Shown here piece by piece: positions 4,802-46,947 of a DNA stretch of 64,000 nt. The notes beneath the pieces were generated by a model. That model did not search any database. It saw nothing but the letters and a program-made list of their open reading frames with translations, and was not told the DNA's origin. The position numbers were made by a program, and so were the translations under genes. The stretch comes from an uncultured Clostridia bacterium (GTDB lineage Bacteria; Bacillota; Clostridia; TANB77; CAG-508): contig CAMMZC010000003.1 in NCBI GenBank assembly GCA_946529215.1, positions 3,976-67,975 of the forward strand, given 5' to 3'. Each line of letters opens with the position of its first letter. Position 1 is the stretch's first letter.

Positions 4802-4946
4802 AGCGATCCCTCCTTGACTAAAATTTTATTAATATACTGTAATGTAATGATGATTGTTTTATGTTTTTTGTGTAAAATATTTTCTATTTGGATTATATCA
4901 TATTGCAATTTTTTTTTCAATAATATATAATTATTTTTGAAAGGAA

Positions 4947-16321: not shown

Positions 16322-16397
<76 letters not shown>

Positions 16398-16499: not shown

Positions 16500-18575
16500 T
16501 TATTGATTTTTTAATTTTAATATGTTGATTGTTTCCATAGTTTCTTTAGACTTCTCGTTATCTTTGCCATATACTTTGCATTGTAATTTGTATAATTTTT
16601 CGTATAACTCTAGCGAATTATTATATTTTTTCATTTTTTTATAAATACTAGCTAAATTATTTAAATTCCTTAATGTATTTGGATGAGTTTTCCCTAATGT
16701 TTCTTCACTCTTTTTATATGCTTCTTTTCCAAATTTTATAGCATTATCATAATTTTCTATATCACTATAATAAGTTGCAAGATTGTTTAACGATGTTAAT
16801 GTGTTAGGATGAGAGTCTCCCAATATTTCCTTTAATTTATTATAAACTATTTCACCTAATTTTACAGCTTTATTATAATTTCCCGTATGATTATAATAAT
16901 AAGAAAGATTATTTAAGCTTCTAAATGTATCTGGATGCTCATATCCTAATGTCTCTTTTCTATTTTTGTATACCTTTTCTCCTAACCTTATTGCTTCTTT
17001 ATAATCTTTTTTATAATTATAATAAATTGCAAGTCTGTTTAAACTTGTTAATGTATTTGGATGAGTTTTGCCTAATGTTTCTTTTCTTTTTTTATACACA
17101 TCTTTTCCGAGTTTTATTGCCATATCATAATTTCCTATATTACTGTAACTGACAGCTAGATTATTTAAACTAGTTAATGTATCAATATGAGTTTCTCCTA
17201 AACTTTCTTCTCTTTTTCTATATACTTCTTCTCCAAGTTTTATTGCTATATCATACTTTCCAATATCATCATAACCTCTCGCTATATTATTTAAACTATC
17301 TAATGTATATAAATTATTCTCTCCTAATACTTCTTTTTGGATTTTATAGCATTCATTGTTTACTTCCAATGCTTTGTTATAATCACCTGTATTTCTATAA
17401 GCAACAGCCAATTTAGTTAAACTTATCAATGTATTTAAATGTTTTTCTCCTAATTCTTTTTTATCTTTTTCATATACCTTTTTTTGCCACTCTAAAGCTT
17501 TTTTATAATCTAATTTTGTTCCTTTACCTTCTTCATATATATATACAAGCTCTTTCATTGCTTCTTTACATTCAAGATTTCCTGATTGTTCAAGCAGTTT
17601 TATTCCTTTTTCTTTATTTACTTCAACATCAATGCCATTTAAATATGCTAATCCTATAAAGTATAAGTGTTTTGGATCATCATTTTCCCTCCATGCTTCA
17701 TTTATTAAATACTTTTTTAAAGATTCACTTAAAAGCTCTGTATCATTTACTTTAATCGGAACAGGTATTTCTTTATATTTTTTTTGTAATTCTTCTTTAC
17801 TTGTATCTACCGCTTCAATTGGAACTATATTTTTACATTCTTTTTTAGCATTTGGATATTCTATTTTTTCCACATAGTTTTCTTCATTTACTAGATTTGG
17901 CGTTACAACCATTGCAAATAATTTACTTTTCTTCAAAGCTTCCTCTATTGACTCATTAAAATCTTGCCCTGGCTTTAAAAACTCATCATACCAAATTGCA
18001 ATATCTCTGCAAAATTCATTTTCATGAATTAAATGCATTATGTTTTCAGCATGTTTTTTGTCTTTTTTTCTATAACTTAAAAATATATATGCATCAAAAG
18101 CTTCTTGAACCTGTTTTCTCAATTCATCACTTACTAATACTGATTCTATATATTCTTTTAATTTACTTTTATATTTTTCTTCTCCAACAACTAACTTACT
18201 TAATGCTTGAAGGTTTCCACATTTTTCGTTAAAGTAGCTATCTATATTTGGCTCCATCATTATTGGCAAAATTGGAATATGATTATCCATTGCATATTGA
18301 AATTCTACTACTCTTGCATCACATTCTTCTGATATAAATTTCCATGTTACAGGTATCACAAATAAGTTTATTTGGCTCAAGTCATCTATAATTTCTCTTG
18401 AATTAATATTTTTATCAGCTTTATAATAAATTACACAATTTCTTATATCTAGAATTTCTTCAGTTATCTCTTCAAAATATTTATCAAAATCATTTTGATA
18501 GCAACAAAAATATACTCTTGATTTATCTTTTAGTTCTTTTCCTCTTGTTTTATATTTTAACTTTATTTCTTCCAT
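16500..18575 (-). CDS. Tandem TIR-like domains + TPR (TPR_10/12-type) repeat protein
   Basis: 691 aa. Residues about 160-300 match the TIR pattern (YIFLSYRKKD...IAIWYDEFLKPGQDF...FAMVVTPNLVNE). Residues about 15-150 are a second TIR/DUF4062-like module (RVYFCCYQNDFDKYF...). The C-terminal half holds about 8 TPR repeats ending in SLNNLA..Y/ LGK.HPNTL. Confidence 0.7.
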   Translation of the reverse strand: MEEIKLKYKTRGKELKDKSRVYFCCYQNDFDKYFEEITEEILDIRNCVIYYKADKNINSREIIDDLSQINLFVIPVTWKFISEECDARVVEFQYAMDNHIPILPIMMEPNIDSYFNEKCGNLQALSKLVVGEEKYKSKLKEYIESVLVSDELRKQVQEAFDAYIFLSYRKKDKKHAENIMHLIHENEFCRDIAIWYDEFLKPGQDFNESIEEALKKSKLFAMVVTPNLVNEENYVEKIEYPNAKKECKNIVPIEAVDTSKEELQKKYKEIPVPIKVNDTELLSESLKKYLINEAWRENDDPKHLYFIGLAYLNGIDVEVNKEKGIKLLEQSGNLECKEAMKELVYIYEEGKGTKLDYKKALEWQKKVYEKDKKELGEKHLNTLISLTKLAVAYRNTGDYNKALEVNNECYKIQKEVLGENNLYTLDSLNNIARGYDDIGKYDIAIKLGEEVYRKREESLGETHIDTLTSLNNLAVSYSNIGNYDMAIKLGKDVYKKRKETLGKTHPNTLTSLNRLAIYYNYKKDYKEAIRLGEKVYKNRKETLGYEHPDTFRSLNNLSYYYNHTGNYNKAVKLGEIVYNKLKEILGDSHPNTLTSLNNLATYYSDIENYDNAIKFGKEAYKKSEETLGKTHPNTLRNLNNLASIYKKMKKYNNSLELYEKLYKLQCKVYGKDNEKSKETMETINILKLKNQ

Positions 18576-26819: not shown

Positions 26820-26984
26820 ATCAGATCATTCCTCTCTTAAATACTTATAGTTGTTTAATTCTTCTTTTCTTAAACTAAATCATTATTTTAAATACACATA
26901 TATAATAGCACTTGAATAAAAAAAATGCAATCAAAACTTTAAAAATAAAAAGATTTTTATGTAATCAAATTTTTAAGCGCAAAA

Positions 26985-27195
26985 AATCCCCGCTGTAGCC
27001 GTAACTTGTGCCAAAATTTTTAACAACCTGCTCTCACAAACAGGTGGGTGCCTACCTAAATACTCATGGGCTTCTTACTACTATTATATTGCAAAAAGTG
27101 TAAGCTTGCACGCCATATTCAGAGTTCAGCCCCTCTTTAAACTTGTAGGTTCTAAAAATTCTGCAATACGCACTATGCAGGGGTTTTGTTTAATT
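26985..27195 (+). ncRNA. Candidate structured small RNA of unknown class (6S-like or other)
   Basis: About 210-bp non-coding segment with clearly higher GC than its flanks, lying between two minus-strand genes. The 5' end CCCCGCTGTAG can pair with the 3' end CTATGCAGGGG, followed by TTTT. Internal hairpins include GGTGGG-TG-CCTACC and CCTAC...GTAGG. GU pairs favour the plus strand. Confidence 0.3.
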
Positions 27196-31047: not shown

Positions 31048-31123
31048 TGGTGCCACCAAGCAGAATCGAACTGCTGGCCTACGGGTTACGAATCCGTCGC
31101 TCTACCAACTGAGCTATAGTGGC
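31048..31123 (-). tRNA. tRNA-Thr (CGU)
   Basis: Reverse complement reads GCCACTATAGCTCAGTTGGTAGAGCGACGGATTCGTAACCCGTAGGCCAGCAGTTCGATTCTGCTTGGTGGCACCA: cloverleaf with anticodon CGT and encoded CCA. Confidence 0.88.
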
Positions 31124-31300: not shown

Positions 31301-33427
31301 TTACAAATGCAAAACCCTTGCCTTTATCTCTTTAGTCTTCCCTACATTCCAAAAATTCTCTCCCAAGTATCCACAAGTGCGACGTACAACTGTAAGTTTG
31401 CTATGGTCTTTGTTTCCGCAATTTGGGCATTCCCATTCTAAGTCTTTATTTATTTTAATTTCTCCATCAAATCCACATACATGACAATAATCAGATTTTG
31501 TATTTACTTCTGCATATTGAATATTCTCATATATGTATTTAATTAATGTTTCTAGTGCTGGAATGTTGTTTTTCATATTTGGAATTTCTACATAAGAAAT
31601 TGCTCCACCACCAGATAATTGTTGAAATTCTGATTCAAATTTAAGCTTTTCAAATGCGTCTATTTTTTCTCTAACATCTACGTGATAAGAATTTGTGTAA
31701 TATCCTTTATCTGTTACATCTTCTATAGTTCCAAATCTTTCTTTATCTATTTTTGCAAATCTATAGCACAAGCTTTCTGCAGGTGTGCCATACAAAGAAA
31801 ATCCTATATTTGTTTCTTTTCTCCATTTTAAAGTTTTATCTTTCATGTATTGCATTACTTTTATTGCAAAATCGTGTCCTTCAGGTGCTGTGTGTGGAAC
31901 TCCTTTCATTAATTTTGTCATTTCATATATTCCTATATATCCAAGAGAAATTGTTGAATATCCTCCATAAAGTAATTTATCTATTTTTTCTCCTTGCTCT
32001 AATCTTGCAATTGCTCCATATCTCCAATGAATTGGGCTAATATCTGCAGATGTTCCAACTAATGCATAATGTCTACACATTAATGCTTCTTTACATAGTT
32101 CTAATCTTTCATCTAGTAGCTCCCAAAATTTCTTTTCGTCTCCTTCTGCAACAATTGCAACTTGTGGCAAATTAATGCTTACTACCCCTTGATTAAATCT
32201 ACCTTCAAATTTGTAGTTTCCATTTTCATCTTTCCATGGAATAAGGAAACTTCTACATCCCATTGGGCTAAATACATTTCCTTCATAATTTTCTCTCATT
32301 TTTTTAGCAGAAATATAATCCGGATACATTCTTTTTGCAGAGCATTCTACAGCAAGTTTTGTTAAATAATCATATTTTCCACCTGTTAAATTATTACATT
32401 CATCTAAAACATAAACTAATTTCGGAAATGCTGGTGTAACATAAACTCCTGCACTATTTTTAATTCCTTGTAACCTTTGACGTAATACTTCTTCTATTAT
32501 CATTGCATTTTCTTCGATGTATTCGTCATTAGGGTCAATGTGCAAAAATAGTGTAACAAATGGAGCTTGACCATTTGTAGTCATTAATGTGTTTATTTGA
32601 TATTGAATTGTTTGCACTCCCGCTGCTAATTCTGTTTTTAGCCTTTTTGAGACTAATTTTTCTATTATTTTTTTATCAAAATTTTCACCTAGTTCTTCTA
32701 TTACTTCTTTTTTAAATTTTTCCTTACTTTTTCTTAAATATTTGCCAAGGTGAATCATATCTATAGATTGTCCGCCATATTGATTACTTGCAACTGTTGC
32801 TATAATTTGAGAAGTTACAATGCATGCAACTTGAAAGCTCTTTGGAGAATCTATCATTTTGCCATTCATAACAGTTCCATTGTCTAACATATCACCTATA
32901 TTTATTAAACAACAATTAAATATTGGTTGTATAAAATAATCTGCATCATGAAAATGCAAAATTCCGTCTTCCCATGCTTTTATTATTTTTTCTGGAAGTA
33001 AAATTCTTTTTGATAAATCCTTTGAAACTTCTCCTGCAATTAAATCTCTTTGTGTAGAAGCAATTAATGCATTTTTGTTTGAATTTTCTTCCATTACATC
33101 TTTATTATTTCTTCTTATTAAACCTAAAATTGATTCATCTGTAGTATTACTTTTTCTAACCAATGCTCTTGTATATCTATATACTATGTATTTTTTTGCA
33201 AGCTCATATTTTCCAAGTTCCATCAATTTTGCTTCTATTATATCTTGAATATCTTCAACTAAAATTCTCTTTTTGCCTAATTCTTCTATATATTCTGTTA
33301 TTGTTTTTATATCTTCTGTTGATGCCTTTTCTTTTTTGGTAACTTCTGTATTTGCCTTTTCTATGGCAATTTTTATTTTACTTTTGTCGTAATCTACGAC
33401 TCTTCCATCTCTTTTTATTACTTTCAT
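31301..33427 (-). CDS. nrdD: Anaerobic ribonucleoside-triphosphate reductase
   Basis: N-terminal ATP-cone (MKVIKRDGRVVDYD). C-terminal glycyl-radical motif RRTCGYLG and Zn-ribbon CxxC..CxxC. Start taken at ATG 33427; the 39-aa upstream extension in the track overlaps a repeat element and was rejected. Confidence 0.9.
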   Translation of the reverse strand: MKVIKRDGRVVDYDKSKIKIAIEKANTEVTKKEKASTEDIKTITEYIEELGKKRILVEDIQDIIEAKLMELGKYELAKKYIVYRYTRALVRKSNTTDESILGLIRRNNKDVMEENSNKNALIASTQRDLIAGEVSKDLSKRILLPEKIIKAWEDGILHFHDADYFIQPIFNCCLINIGDMLDNGTVMNGKMIDSPKSFQVACIVTSQIIATVASNQYGGQSIDMIHLGKYLRKSKEKFKKEVIEELGENFDKKIIEKLVSKRLKTELAAGVQTIQYQINTLMTTNGQAPFVTLFLHIDPNDEYIEENAMIIEEVLRQRLQGIKNSAGVYVTPAFPKLVYVLDECNNLTGGKYDYLTKLAVECSAKRMYPDYISAKKMRENYEGNVFSPMGCRSFLIPWKDENGNYKFEGRFNQGVVSINLPQVAIVAEGDEKKFWELLDERLELCKEALMCRHYALVGTSADISPIHWRYGAIARLEQGEKIDKLLYGGYSTISLGYIGIYEMTKLMKGVPHTAPEGHDFAIKVMQYMKDKTLKWRKETNIGFSLYGTPAESLCYRFAKIDKERFGTIEDVTDKGYYTNSYHVDVREKIDAFEKLKFESEFQQLSGGGAISYVEIPNMKNNIPALETLIKYIYENIQYAEVNTKSDYCHVCGFDGEIKINKDLEWECPNCGNKDHSKLTVVRRTCGYLGENFWNVGKTKEIKARVLHL

Positions 33428-33455
33428 TTCTTTCCCTTTCTCACTAGTATTTTCG

Positions 33456-33644
33456 TTACAATTCACAACCGAAAATATTTTTTTATAAAAGTTAATATAT
33501 AAATTATTTGTAATTAAATGTGGGGACCGTTCAATGATTTCCAAAAGTTTGAAAAACTTTTGATGAAATCATTAGAATGGGGATAATGTAAAATAATTTA
33601 TATATTAACTTTAACCCGTACAACAATTAGCTGAAAATTGTAAC
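33456..33644. repeat. Repeat family B copy 1 (ttacaattcaca...core) with internal 20-bp near-perfect palindrome, in nrdD 5' region
   Basis: 33456..33483 ttacaattcacaaccgaaaatatttttt and 33599..33644 tatatattaactttaacccgtacaacaattagctgaaaattgtaa match 43776..43866 at about 90% identity. The central insert holds the palindrome ttcaatgatttccaaaagttt-g-aaacttttgatgaaatcattagaa. Confidence 0.55.
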
Positions 33645-33780
33645 GTATTTTTTAAAATTATATCAATAATTATTAAAAAATCTGTTGCTATTGCAACAAA
33701 TATATGCTATAGTTATATATATCAAAATAAGAAAAATTTTAAAATATATCCAACAAAAAAATTAATAGAGGTGTAACAAA

Positions 33781-34413
33781 ATGCAATCTGAAGAAGAAAT
33801 TTCAAATTTTCTAAAATCCATTGAAACTAGATGCTATAAGACAACTAAGCACTCATTTTTAAAAGGAGAAACAATAACAACATATCTTGAAAAACGTAAT
33901 CAACTATGCATTCTTCTAAATGGAGAGGCAGATTTAATTAGATATGATTTTAATGGTAATAAAACAATAATTGGACAATTTTCTAATAATAGTATTTTCG
34001 GAGAAGCCCTTTATCCCGCAAATACAAATAACGAACTTTTTGTGCTTGCAAAAACAAATTGTGAAGTATTATTTTTTTCTTATGATAATCTTTGGACTAA
34101 ATGCAGGCAAAATTGCTCATTTCATAAAGAATTTTCCGAGCAAATAAATAAACTAATTATTAGCCAAGTAGTTGAACTTAACACTAGAATTGAGCTTCTT
34201 ACTAAAAAAAATATAAGAGACAAACTTTTATCATATTTTGATATTTTGTCTAGTAAAAAATTAAGTAAAACTATATCTATTCCTTTTACTTTTACAGATT
34301 TAGCAGATTATTTGAGTGTAGATAGAAGTGCTATGACTCGTGAGCTTTCTCATCTTATTGAAGAAGGCTTTATAGAGAAAAAGGGAAAGAAAATTAAATT
34401 ACTATATAATTAA
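33781..34413 (+). CDS. Crp/Fnr family transcriptional regulator
   Basis: 210 aa. cNMP-binding-like N-domain and C-terminal HTH (FTFTDLADYLSVDRSAMTRELSHLIEEGFI). Confidence 0.8.
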   Translation: MQSEEEISNFLKSIETRCYKTTKHSFLKGETITTYLEKRNQLCILLNGEADLIRYDFNGNKTIIGQFSNNSIFGEALYPANTNNELFVLAKTNCEVLFFSYDNLWTKCRQNCSFHKEFSEQINKLIISQVVELNTRIELLTKKNIRDKLLSYFDILSSKKLSKTISIPFTFTDLADYLSVDRSAMTRELSHLIEEGFIEKKGKKIKLLYN

Positions 34414-34423
34414 AAAGCAGACA

Positions 34424-35401
34424 TTATACATCTGCTTTTTTACTTTCTTCTATTTCTTTTTGAAAATTATTATAAGCTTCATTCCAAGCCTCAAAACTTT
34501 TGTCTTCTCTATGATCTGGAAGATCATTGTTATTTTTCAAATACTCACCAAGATAACTTGTTACTTTTAAAGCACCTGTGTAATTTAAATGCTCTCCCCT
34601 TTTTTCTTGACAATCTTTTTTCCAATTAATTTTTAATTCATCAACCTTTAAATTTAAGTCAATATATTCTATTCCTAATTTTTTTGCGATTTTTTCTATT
34701 CCATTGTGTTTATCATAATTCCAATTTGCAGGTGATGGTGAATTATACAGCATAAATTTTGCATCATTTTTTTTACATAAATCTTTAATTTCTTTTAAAT
34801 GTTTTATATTATCACTAGGTACTTTTTTAGAAACTTCATTTTCCTTCATGAAGTTATCTCTTTTGCTCTTCTTTACTTTATTGGTCTTAGTGCTAAATCT
34901 ATATCCTTTATCATTTACTATTTCTGTATATTCAGGTGTTTTATAAAAATCCTCTTTGGTTAAATTTTTCCATCTATCATGAAATTCCAAAACTGGAAAA
35001 TATTTATCAACATATTCTTTTAAATGGCGCACATATCCATTTTTAGTATATAAAGCATTTGCTTCTAAAATAACAATTTTAGGCTTTTGTCTTTTAAAAG
35101 CTACATTTAAATAATAGTAACTATTAGAAATACGCTGTGCAGGTGTCCCACAAACATAAGAAGTAAATCCATATTGATTCCATAGTTCTAGAGGTATATA
35201 TGAATTATATGATTCACTATCTCCAAGTACTATAACATCTATAGTATTTTCTGGCTCAGTATAAATTCCTGTTACAAGTTGTTTTCTTTTTCCTATTCCA
35301 GCTTCTAAAGTATTGTTTTTTGGTACAAATATTTTTGAAAGTAAAGCTAAAATTATAAAAAATATGCCTACAAAAACAATACATTTTATTGTCCTTTTCA
35401 T
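34424..35401 (-). CDS. DltD-like protein (membrane-anchored SGNH-type)
   Basis: 325 aa. N-terminal signal/anchor. Sits last in an operon with DltA/DltC/DltB-like genes. Family assignment rests on context and general similarity. Confidence 0.5.
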   Translation of the reverse strand: MKRTIKCIVFVGIFFIILALLSKIFVPKNNTLEAGIGKRKQLVTGIYTEPENTIDVIVLGDSESYNSYIPLELWNQYGFTSYVCGTPAQRISNSYYYLNVAFKRQKPKIVILEANALYTKNGYVRHLKEYVDKYFPVLEFHDRWKNLTKEDFYKTPEYTEIVNDKGYRFSTKTNKVKKSKRDNFMKENEVSKKVPSDNIKHLKEIKDLCKKNDAKFMLYNSPSPANWNYDKHNGIEKIAKKLGIEYIDLNLKVDELKINWKKDCQEKRGEHLNYTGALKVTSYLGEYLKNNNDLPDHREDKSFEAWNEAYNNFQKEIEESKKADV

Positions 35402-42965: not shown

Positions 42966-43382
42966 TTAGTTTGCTATAGCTAATTTAAGTTCTTTTATTT
43001 CATTTTCATTTGAAATAATTCTAGCTTCTAACTTAGCATCGCGTTCATAGGTTATAGAGGATACTACATTTATTGCATTAACTACATCTTCTACTATTTC
43101 TTCTTTTTGTTTCTTTAAATCTTCTTTAAATTCTGCTCTTAATTCTTTTAAATCTTCTTTAAATTCTGCTCTTAATTCTTTTAAATCTTCTTTAGTTGCA
43201 AATTTCTTTAAGTCTTCTTTAGTTGCAAATTTCTTTAAGTCTTCTTTAGTTGCAAATTTCTTTGCTTCTTCTTTTGTAACCATATTTTTCAACTCACTTC
43301 TTATTTCGTCTAAAGCTGTTTGAAAATTATTAAATCCTTTTAATAATGTAATAAGTATATCATCTCTTTCTTTATTAGTCAT
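42966..43382 (-). CDS. Coiled-coil tandem-repeat protein (hypothetical)
   Basis: 138 aa with peptide repeats (KKFATKEDL)x3 and (KELRAEFKEDL)x2, encoded by perfect DNA tandem repeats. Confidence 0.5.
   Translation of the reverse strand: MTNKERDDILITLLKGFNNFQTALDEIRSELKNMVTKEEAKKFATKEDLKKFATKEDLKKFATKEDLKELRAEFKEDLKELRAEFKEDLKKQKEEIVEDVVNAINVVSSITYERDAKLEARIISNENEIKELKLAIAN
43120..43275. repeat. Intragenic perfect tandem DNA repeats (2 x about 42 bp and 3 x 30 bp)
   Basis: aattcttttaaatcttctttaaattctgctctt repeated twice, then aagtcttctttagttgcaaatttcttt repeated three times. A potential length-variable locus. Confidence 0.85.
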
Positions 43383-43687: not shown

Positions 43688-43746
43688 AAAAACTATTGCA
43701 ATTAATATATTATCACAAAATATATAATAATGCAATAGTTTTTTAA
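43688..43746. terminator. Long bidirectional terminator hairpin
   Basis: aaaaactattgcaatta...taatgcaatagtttttt: stem of about 15 bp, A-run upstream and T-run downstream. Confidence 0.55.
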
Positions 43747-43775
43747 AAAAATTACCAAATTTTTACATTTAATTA

Positions 43776-43866
43776 TTACAATTCACATCCGAAAATATTT
43801 TTTTAGTAAATGTAAATATTTATATATTAACTTTAAACAGTACAACAATAAGCTGTGAATTATATC
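43776..43866. repeat. Repeat family B copy 2 (short form)
   Basis: ttacaattcacatccgaaaatattttttt...tatatattaactttaaacagtacaacaataagctgtgaatta matches both halves of copy 1 (33456..33644). It lies 7 bp downstream of the MBL hydrolase stop. Confidence 0.55.
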
Positions 43867-46836: not shown

Positions 46837-46947
46837 TTTTTATTCCCTCCTAAAGTTTCTTTTTGGGACGGAGGTAAAAAGTAACCTCATTACCCTAATC
46901 TACCTTTTTATCCATTTATATATTCAATAAATTATTACAAATACAAA

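Follow-up and report, generated by a model that had tools for sequence, protein, structure and literature searches.

Repeat family B, one copy of which lies in the 5' leader of the ribonucleotide reductase gene nrdD, is very probably a non-autonomous transposable element of the MITE type that comes in two size forms; it would be mobile DNA, and not a conserved control site of nrdD. The original prediction had left two readings side by side, a small mobile element or an operator, with NrdR-type control in mind. The first is borne out by terminal inverted repeats, by 8-bp flanking repeats, by presence in some close relatives and absence from others, and by insertions elsewhere that arose independently and share these ends, and the second is not supported. 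The conspicuous palindrome upstream of nrdD would thus be hitch-hiking mobile DNA, and the candidate control site is a far less striking palindrome of 14 bp, 40 bp farther upstream and beside a gene of the Crp/Fnr family.

By their published definition, prokaryotic MITEs are typically shorter than 500 bp, with inverted repeats at the termini and direct repeats on the flanks that degrade over time; they insert into AT-rich DNA between genes, and their transcripts fold into stable stem-loops (PMC10969869). The two copies of family B, 190 and 92 bp long and lacking a transposase gene, fall within this size range; the element is non-coding, and it has terminal inverted repeats, a flanking duplication of fixed length (8 bp) at AT-rich targets, and an insertion polymorphism at nrdD.

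Structure of the two copies

The window, as we call the whole 64-kb stretch of DNA analysed, has a G+C content of 27%, and the closest named proteins are from 'Clostridia bacterium' MAGs, including one from goat omasum. The gene nrdD (31301..33427, minus strand) encodes a class III ribonucleotide reductase of 708 aa, whose ATP-cone, NRDD, and Gly_radical domains bear out the identity given to it originally and, with it, the location of the element in the nrdD 5' region. It starts at the ATG at 33427, preceded by the Shine-Dalgarno sequence AAAGGGA (33439-33433). A 747-aa ORF that opens at a TTG and runs into the element was rejected as a mechanical artefact, the relatives beginning at the ATG of 33427.

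With boundaries as refined here, the long-form copy in the nrdD leader occupies 33455-33644 (190 bp; its minus strand reads GTTACAATTTTCAGC ... GGTTGTGAATTGTAAC) and the short-form copy 43775-43866 (92 bp), both on the minus strand and about 10 kb apart. The short copy lies 6 nt 3' of the stop codon of a gene for an MBL-fold hydrolase and approximately 390 bp upstream of a 138-aa ORF, which is followed by rpsF-ssb-rpsR. Pairwise alignment of the two loci yields a common left block of about 30 bp, a common right block of about 45 bp, and some 97-100 bp found in the nrdD copy only, with nothing else duplicated between or around the copies. The left block, TTACAATTCACANCCGAAAATATTTTTTTA, has exactly two matches in the 64-kb window (33456 and 43776), as does the right block, TATATATTAACTTTAANCNGTACAACAATNAGCTG (33599 and 43821), and neither had a match in 100 shuffles. 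The repeat therefore does occur twice, at the places originally given, and the nrdD copy does carry about 100 extra bp with a near-perfect palindrome.

At the outer ends of the nrdD copy, the last 10 bases, CGTTACAATT and AATTGTAACG, are perfectly complementary (10/10), so that the short inverted repeats noted earlier are real and longer than had been claimed. The terminal inverted repeat, GTTACAATTCACA / TGTGAATTGTAAC, is found on the nrdD-proximal side at 33455..33467 (plus strand GTTACAATTCACA, minus strand TGTGAATTGTAAC), with the conserved subterminal sequence CCGAAAATATTTT next inward, and on the promoter-proximal side at 33632..33644, where the minus strand reads GTTACAATTTTCA and has two mismatches to the family consensus GTTACAATTCACA. 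The two ends pair at 11 of 13 positions in this copy, at 12 of 13 in L011 (a member from another MAG, described below), and at all 13 in L002, a relative whose NrdD is 97% identical to that of the window. The ends of the short copy, GATATAATTCACAGC and GATGTGAATTGTAAT, have two mismatches each.

The long form contains a further inverted repeat that is missing from the earlier description. Its 29-nt arms, at 33488..33516 (block B', AAAGTTAATATATAAATTATTTGTAATTA, missing from the short copy) and 33584..33612 (block B, common to the short copy), are 90% complementary, with a 22-nt core that is 100% complementary. Between the arms lies the central near-perfect palindrome, TTCAATGATTTCCAAAAGTTT-GAA-AAACTTTTGATGAAATCATTAGAA (33530..33577), with about 20 pairs and two small bulges, bordered by direct TGGGGA motifs at 33521 and 33578. 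The long form may consist of the short form plus an inverted duplicate of the internal block and the central palindrome, or, just as well, the short form may have arisen from the long one by internal deletion. The longest ORFs inside the copies are of 21-31 aa. A possible internal promoter in the shared block (TTGTTG/TTGTAC ... TATATA/TAAATT) is speculative; it fell below the scan threshold in copy 1 and gave only a weak match in copy 2.

Several other features of the window were recorded. A perfect 13-nt inverted repeat, AAAAACTATTGCA / TGCAATAGTTTTT (43688-43700 / 43731-43743), with 30 nt between its arms, lies between the short copy and the 138-aa ORF. There is a 6S RNA gene at 26983-27186 (minus strand, 76 bits), and tRNA genes are found at 16322-16394 (plus) and 31051-31123 (minus), one of them about 180 bp downstream of nrdD. 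A 691-aa protein (16500-18575, minus) in which many TPR repeats follow a TIR domain is possibly a defence or signalling protein. Two conserved ORFs, that of 138 aa upstream of rpsF (42966-43382, minus) and one of 325 aa by the Crp/Fnr-family gene (34424-35401, minus), matched no Pfam or NCBIfam family.

Flanking repeats and distribution

Direct repeats of 8 bp adjoin the element on either side, and we interpret them as a putative target-site duplication. At the nrdD copy these are GTATTTTC at 33447..33454 on the nrdD-proximal side (minus strand GAAAATAC) and GTATTTTT at 33645..33652 on the promoter-proximal side (minus strand AAAAATAC), which agree at seven of eight positions; at the orthologous site of L002, AAAAAATA stands on both flanks (8/8). 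Two members from other MAGs, L011 and L014, likewise have 8/8 flanks, and the flanks of the short copy, AGCTAAAT and AATTAAAT, agree at six of eight positions. An 8/8 match is expected with a chance of approximately 1-3e-4 per arbitrary site of like composition, so three independent perfect cases are not attributable to chance.

The spacer between nrdD and the divergent regulator gene (crp) was compared in strains whose NrdD is 97, 96, 95, 91, 86, 83, and 82% identical to that of the window. The element is present in the nrdD leader of the window, L001, L002, L003, L004, and L012 (NrdD 97-100%), the orthologous copy, 96.8% identical and at the same position, being confined to the 97% group (L002, L003, L004, L012). 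It is missing upstream of nrdD in L030-L039 (96%), L040 (95%), L005 and L006 (91%), L007 and L008 (86%), L044-L053 (83%), and L041-L043 (82%). The promoter and the regulator gene are kept in these element-free lineages, with operator and -10 conserved, and the divergent crp-nrdD pair is kept in every relative, over a spacer that varies from 116 to 353 bp. L040 offers an approximate single-copy empty site, TATAAT..AATTATAC-AAGTGAAAAGGAG, against AAAAATAC-[element]-GAAAATAC-TAGTGAGAAAGGG in the window: a single A-rich 8-mer ending in ATAC is followed directly by AAGTGAAAAGGAG. The nrdD leader thus shows an insertion polymorphism, occupied at NrdD identities of 97-100% and empty at 96% and below.

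Copy 2 was not found in the relatives L023-L029, and a clean empty site for it was not recovered among the relatives retrieved; the spacer between the MBL-fold gene and rpsF is rearranged in each of them, with lengths from 162 to about 1,050 bp, and is therefore not alignable. In four independent assemblies (L026-L029) the MBL-fold gene has an extra C near its 3' end (L026, near 3080; CACCGGAAAATC versus CACGGAAAATC), which shifts the frame and replaces the last 20 or so residues; the allele may be truly frameshifted, or the assemblies may share an error. Almost all strains fetched also differ from one another downstream of nrdD, and in some of the 96%-identity strains (L030 and L036, 3038-3527, minus) a 412-aa ORF with a weak HTH_28 match lies directly downstream of nrdD and may encode a transposase.

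Members of the family in other genomes were sought as exact matches to a 19-base conserved-end pattern, TTTTCGGNTGTGAATTGTAA, in genome representatives (one per species), JGI metagenomes, and viral contigs; such collection scans, which take exact patterns with gaps of up to 30 bp, are blind to full-length IS copies. Six stretches were retrieved from the genome representatives: three full members (L011, L012, L014), a lone end (L009), and two that were set aside as chance matches in high-GC or coding DNA. The L011 element (214 bp) is flanked by TATAAATA / TATAAATA and lies between a serine recombinase gene and cmk; that of L014 (about 170 bp) is flanked by TTTTTATA / TTTTTATA and lies between recN and lysS. 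Both insertions are intergenic and in MAGs of uncultured Clostridia. Their ends match the window element, with the 13-bp repeat plus CCGAAAAtATTTT on one side, and their interiors differ from it, each having a long inverted repeat of its own, so that between species only some 25-30 bp at each end are in common. The nrdD-proximal end is found in L011 and L014 and also in L017 and L019, the only two of six JGI metagenome stretches that look genuine, both of them partial ends at contig breaks.

The viral contigs had no match to TTTTCGGNTGTGAATTGTAA, and paired-end patterns with three gap ranges gave 33 loci there (35 rows; L072 and L073 appeared in two scans), all of which were rejected as chance because the extended repeat and the subterminal block are missing from every one. 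Against annotated plasmids and phages, BLAST with the element as query returned short AT-rich chance matches only (E of at least 4e-3). A lone repeat-like 15-mer at L025 4547 is not part of any element. Copy number appears to be low: the 64-kb window has two copies, and each GTDB representative MAG with the conserved end has a single exact match to the 19-mer, the MAG counts being limited by possible collapse of repeats and by the use of exact matches. The 97% relative RGIG2666 is among these MAGs, and from it copy 2 is apparently missing. No parent transposase or IS with GTTACAATTCACA ends was found in the window ORFs scanned, in the fetched loci, or near L009, L011, and L014.

The nrdD leader and its control

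The conserved -10 hexamer of nrdD, TATAAT, lies at 33657..33662 on the minus strand and would place the transcription start near 33650. Since the element begins at 33644, about 6 nt past this predicted start, it lies a few bases into the transcribed leader and would be transcribed as a long 5' hairpin. The leader RNA is predicted to fold into one long hairpin of -55.2 kcal/mol, compared with -33.3 +/- 3.5 for shuffled sequences (z -6.35), with the Shine-Dalgarno sequence and AUG unpaired outside it; the short copy is not unusually stable (z -0.65). Six positions of the element differ between the window and L002; two of them, located in the left terminal repeat, disrupt pairs, and there is no compensatory change among the six. 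A search of Rfam 15 gave no relevant match in the whole window at gathering score or in the spacer at E up to 10; the best permissive matches, to miRNA or CRISPR models, reached 15-24 bits where the cut-offs are 37-92, and the nrdD leaders of the relatives likewise gave nothing relevant.

We propose the following history. Family B would be mobilized in trans by a transposase of the DDE type whose staggered cuts are 8 bp apart. Before the window strain and its 97%-identical relatives diverged, one copy would have entered the nrdD leader about 6 nt past the predicted start, and hence with the conserved promoter of the Crp/Fnr type on one side and the ribosome-binding site on the other; it would now form the first 190 or so nt of the nrdD mRNA and fold into one long hairpin. 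Because pairs have been broken with no compensatory change, and neither the Shine-Dalgarno sequence nor the start codon is predicted to be caught up in the hairpin, the insertion is probably tolerated and near-neutral; it might at most modulate mRNA stability or processing, and would be unneeded for nrdD control. A 5'-terminal hairpin could alter decay of the nrdD mRNA or its processing by RNase III.

Other palindromes occur in the nrdD leaders of sister lineages. Strains of the L030 type have a perfect 27-bp stem at the start of the leader (L030 615-684, -48.5 kcal/mol), and L005 has a 28-bp stem there (4805-4904, -47.8 kcal/mol). L032 and L034 (650-681), whose NrdD protein is identical to that of L030, have one arm only of the L030 palindrome, which is consistent with deletion between TTTTCC repeats. 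The leaders of L040, L007, and L044 are unstructured. In L041, an 82% relative, the 226-nt leader (about 470-700) contains a terminator-like hairpin, GCCTGAAG...CTTCAGG followed by TTTTTT, which has no Rfam match and may be an attenuator.

The arms of the L030- and L005-type palindromes contain GGGAC(G/C)G, which recurs at other intergenic sites of the same genomes. The GC-richer motif (A)AAGGGAC(G/C)G(A/T) is intergenic, just after stop codons or before genes, with sites at L026 2245-2274, L023 about 2430-2470 (in tandem), L005 7039-7052 and 12268-12285, and window 46865-46874; it has the look of a dispersed, REP-like repeat family in this clade and resembles the centre of the long element. 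In the window element, the module at the centre (GGGACCGTTC..TTTCCAAAA) is similar to the L030 arm through the left arm of the palindrome plus GGGACCGTTC, with a score that 7 of 2,000 shuffles equalled. This is suggestive, but no more, of the extra 100 bp of the long form being a captured or inserted copy of the REP-like repeat, and of the nrdD leader being a preferred landing or retention site for hairpin-forming DNA.

An element of mobile origin might since have been co-opted, such that selection favours a 5' stem-loop that changes the stability, RNase III processing, or translation of the nrdD mRNA. We consider this unlikely. The Shine-Dalgarno sequence does stay accessible, the central module does resemble the L030 arm, and three different palindromic inserts begin about 2-8 nt from the predicted start in sister lineages; however, compensatory changes are absent between the window and L002 and the outer stem has decayed in the window, several lineages fare well without any hairpin, and L032 and L034 do without one arm of the L030 palindrome despite their identical NrdD. 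The hairpin motifs also occur at unrelated intergenic sites, as would be expected of dispersed repeats and not of a device specific to the leader. A broader version, which we hold to be distinctly unlikely, makes the nrdD transcript start a recurrent landing and retention site for the unrelated palindromic mobile modules of the window, L030, and L005, the element with its terminal repeats a carrier with a swappable GGGAC(C/G)G core, and the 5' hairpins objects of selection; were it true, selection would repeatedly recruit 5' hairpins that tune the stability or processing of the mRNA for an oxygen-sensitive reductase.

It is very unlikely that the two copies are instead remnants of a local duplication, or a palindromic repeat moved by a recombinase or in the manner of REP/RAYT, and not transposon copies. 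Only two copies are present, on the same strand and about 10 kb apart, and the central module resembles the REP-like GGGACGG motifs scattered in relatives, but nothing around or between the copies is duplicated, and the same termini with perfect 8-bp flanks are found in unrelated contexts of other MAGs. Moreover, we know of no REP/RAYT elements with terminal inverted repeats of the family B kind or with target duplications.

That the element or its central palindrome is an nrdD operator, bound by NrdR or by the neighbouring Crp/Fnr-family regulator, is extremely improbable: it does occupy the 5' region of nrdD, beside a gene of the Crp/Fnr family, and includes a near-perfect palindrome of about 20 bp, but it is missing upstream of nrdD at 95-96, 91, 86, 83, and 82% NrdD identity despite the retained promoter and regulator, it sits downstream of the -10 within the transcribed leader, its second copy adjoins no nrd gene, nothing like an NrdR box is found near nrdD, and a different palindrome is the universally conserved site at fixed spacing. 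The NrdR box is reportedly a 16-bp palindrome with the consensus acaCwAtATaTwGtgt, occurring in pairs upstream of nrd operons (as Rodionov and Gelfand are said to have described in 2005); with up to three mismatches allowed there is none in 33428-33780, and the window as a whole has 5 where 2.6 are expected. The palindrome, then, is not conserved upstream of nrdD at identities of 96% and below and the spacer holds no NrdR box, and the originally suggested NrdR-type control fails on both counts. Nor does the 64-kb window contain an nrdR-like ORF (tblastn with an approximate E. coli NrdR query and the NrdD ATP-cone), the rest of the genome lying outside it.

The conserved site is GTTGC-N4-GCAAC (33684..33697), outside the element and present in the crp-nrdD spacer of every relative. 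It is separated from the downstream TATAAT by exactly 21 bp in each of the nine lineages compared, and its centre would be at about -40.5 if transcription starts 7 nt after the -10, as we infer. It is the sole intergenic exact match in the window; three others (52739, 53540, 53573) fall within the coding sequence of a 435-aa protein and were set aside. In the 83% group a second site is found nearer the regulator gene (L044 436-449 and 548-561). A 'terminator-like' match at 33701-33680 is this same palindrome. The divergent gene (33781..34413, plus strand, 210 aa) encodes a regulator with a generic match to the Crp/Fnr family, and the divergent layout is kept in all relatives. Class II sites of Crp/Fnr-type activators are palindromes centred near -41.5 from the transcription start. 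Control of class III reductase genes by FNR is established in E. coli (PMC4009431), and the passage of that article concerned with FNR/Anr-type class II activation of nrdDG cites Boston and Atlung 2003 and Roca et al. 2008. Given a conserved site at what would be the class II position and the FNR precedent in E. coli, nrdD has a plausible operator other than the element; judging from the sequence, nrdD control most likely works through GTTGC-N4-GCAAC, bound by the divergent Crp/Fnr-family protein in a class II position.

If family B is a MITE, it gives the gut and rumen bacteria a small family whose ends are defined and whose target duplication is 8 bp long; to our knowledge, almost no mobile elements have been described in this bacterial group. 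The 5' leader of an essential anaerobic gene would then tolerate hairpin insertions of 60-190 nt, and such elements could otherwise mislead regulon annotation or riboswitch prediction in AT-rich uncultured Clostridia. The more useful by-product is the conserved GTTGC-N4-GCAAC, a likely control element of nrdD in the clade.

Comparison with known systems

Correia elements (CREE) of Neisseria come in two size classes that differ by an internal segment, and they often lie between promoter and coding sequence, where they are co-transcribed and form a 5' UTR hairpin; they have inverted repeats of about 26 bp, a TA duplication, and hundreds of copies. Family B is like them in its size forms, leader position, and 5' hairpin, but has 13-bp repeats, an 8-bp duplication, few copies, and no sequence similarity to them. 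The ERIC/IRU elements of enterobacteria are imperfect palindromes of approximately 100-200 bp in transcribed intergenic regions, ERIC having size variants that arise through internal insertions or deletions, and the Firmicutes have MITE-like repeats in RUP (Streptococcus pneumoniae) and bcr1 (Bacillus cereus group), with target duplications of TA and TTTAT, respectively; ERIC, RUP, and bcr1 are abundant. Family B shares with this set imperfect palindromes of about 100-200 bp at transcribed intergenic sites, and with ERIC the size variants, whereas its sequence is not similar, its target duplication is another, and its copies are few.

ISL3, IS256, and IS1595 make 8-bp duplications. So does the long clostridial 'IS6-like' group (ISCpe7, ISCbo1, ISTps1), whose terminal repeats mostly do not start with GG (PMC6807381). 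This group resembles family B in the 8-bp duplication, the Clostridia hosts, and terminal repeats that mostly do not begin with GG, but no IS with GTTACAATTCACA ends was retrieved, and the likeness is one of description, the text of PMC6807381 being without repeat sequences; as a source of the family B transposase the group is only a lead.

The upstream site of nrdD is comparable to FNR/Anr-type activation of nrdDG in E. coli in being a 5-N4-5 palindrome at about -40.5 in the promoter of a class III reductase gene that adjoins a Crp/Fnr-family gene; the half-site is GTTGC here and TTGAT there, and the regulator here has a generic Crp/Fnr-family match. The element itself differs from prokaryotic MITEs (PMC10969869) in its very low copy number in the data at hand, in having no partner IS found, and in interiors that differ strongly between hosts, and it is like them in its size, its lack of coding sequence, its terminal inverted repeats and decaying flanks, its AT-rich intergenic targets, its stem-loops, and its presence or absence from strain to strain.
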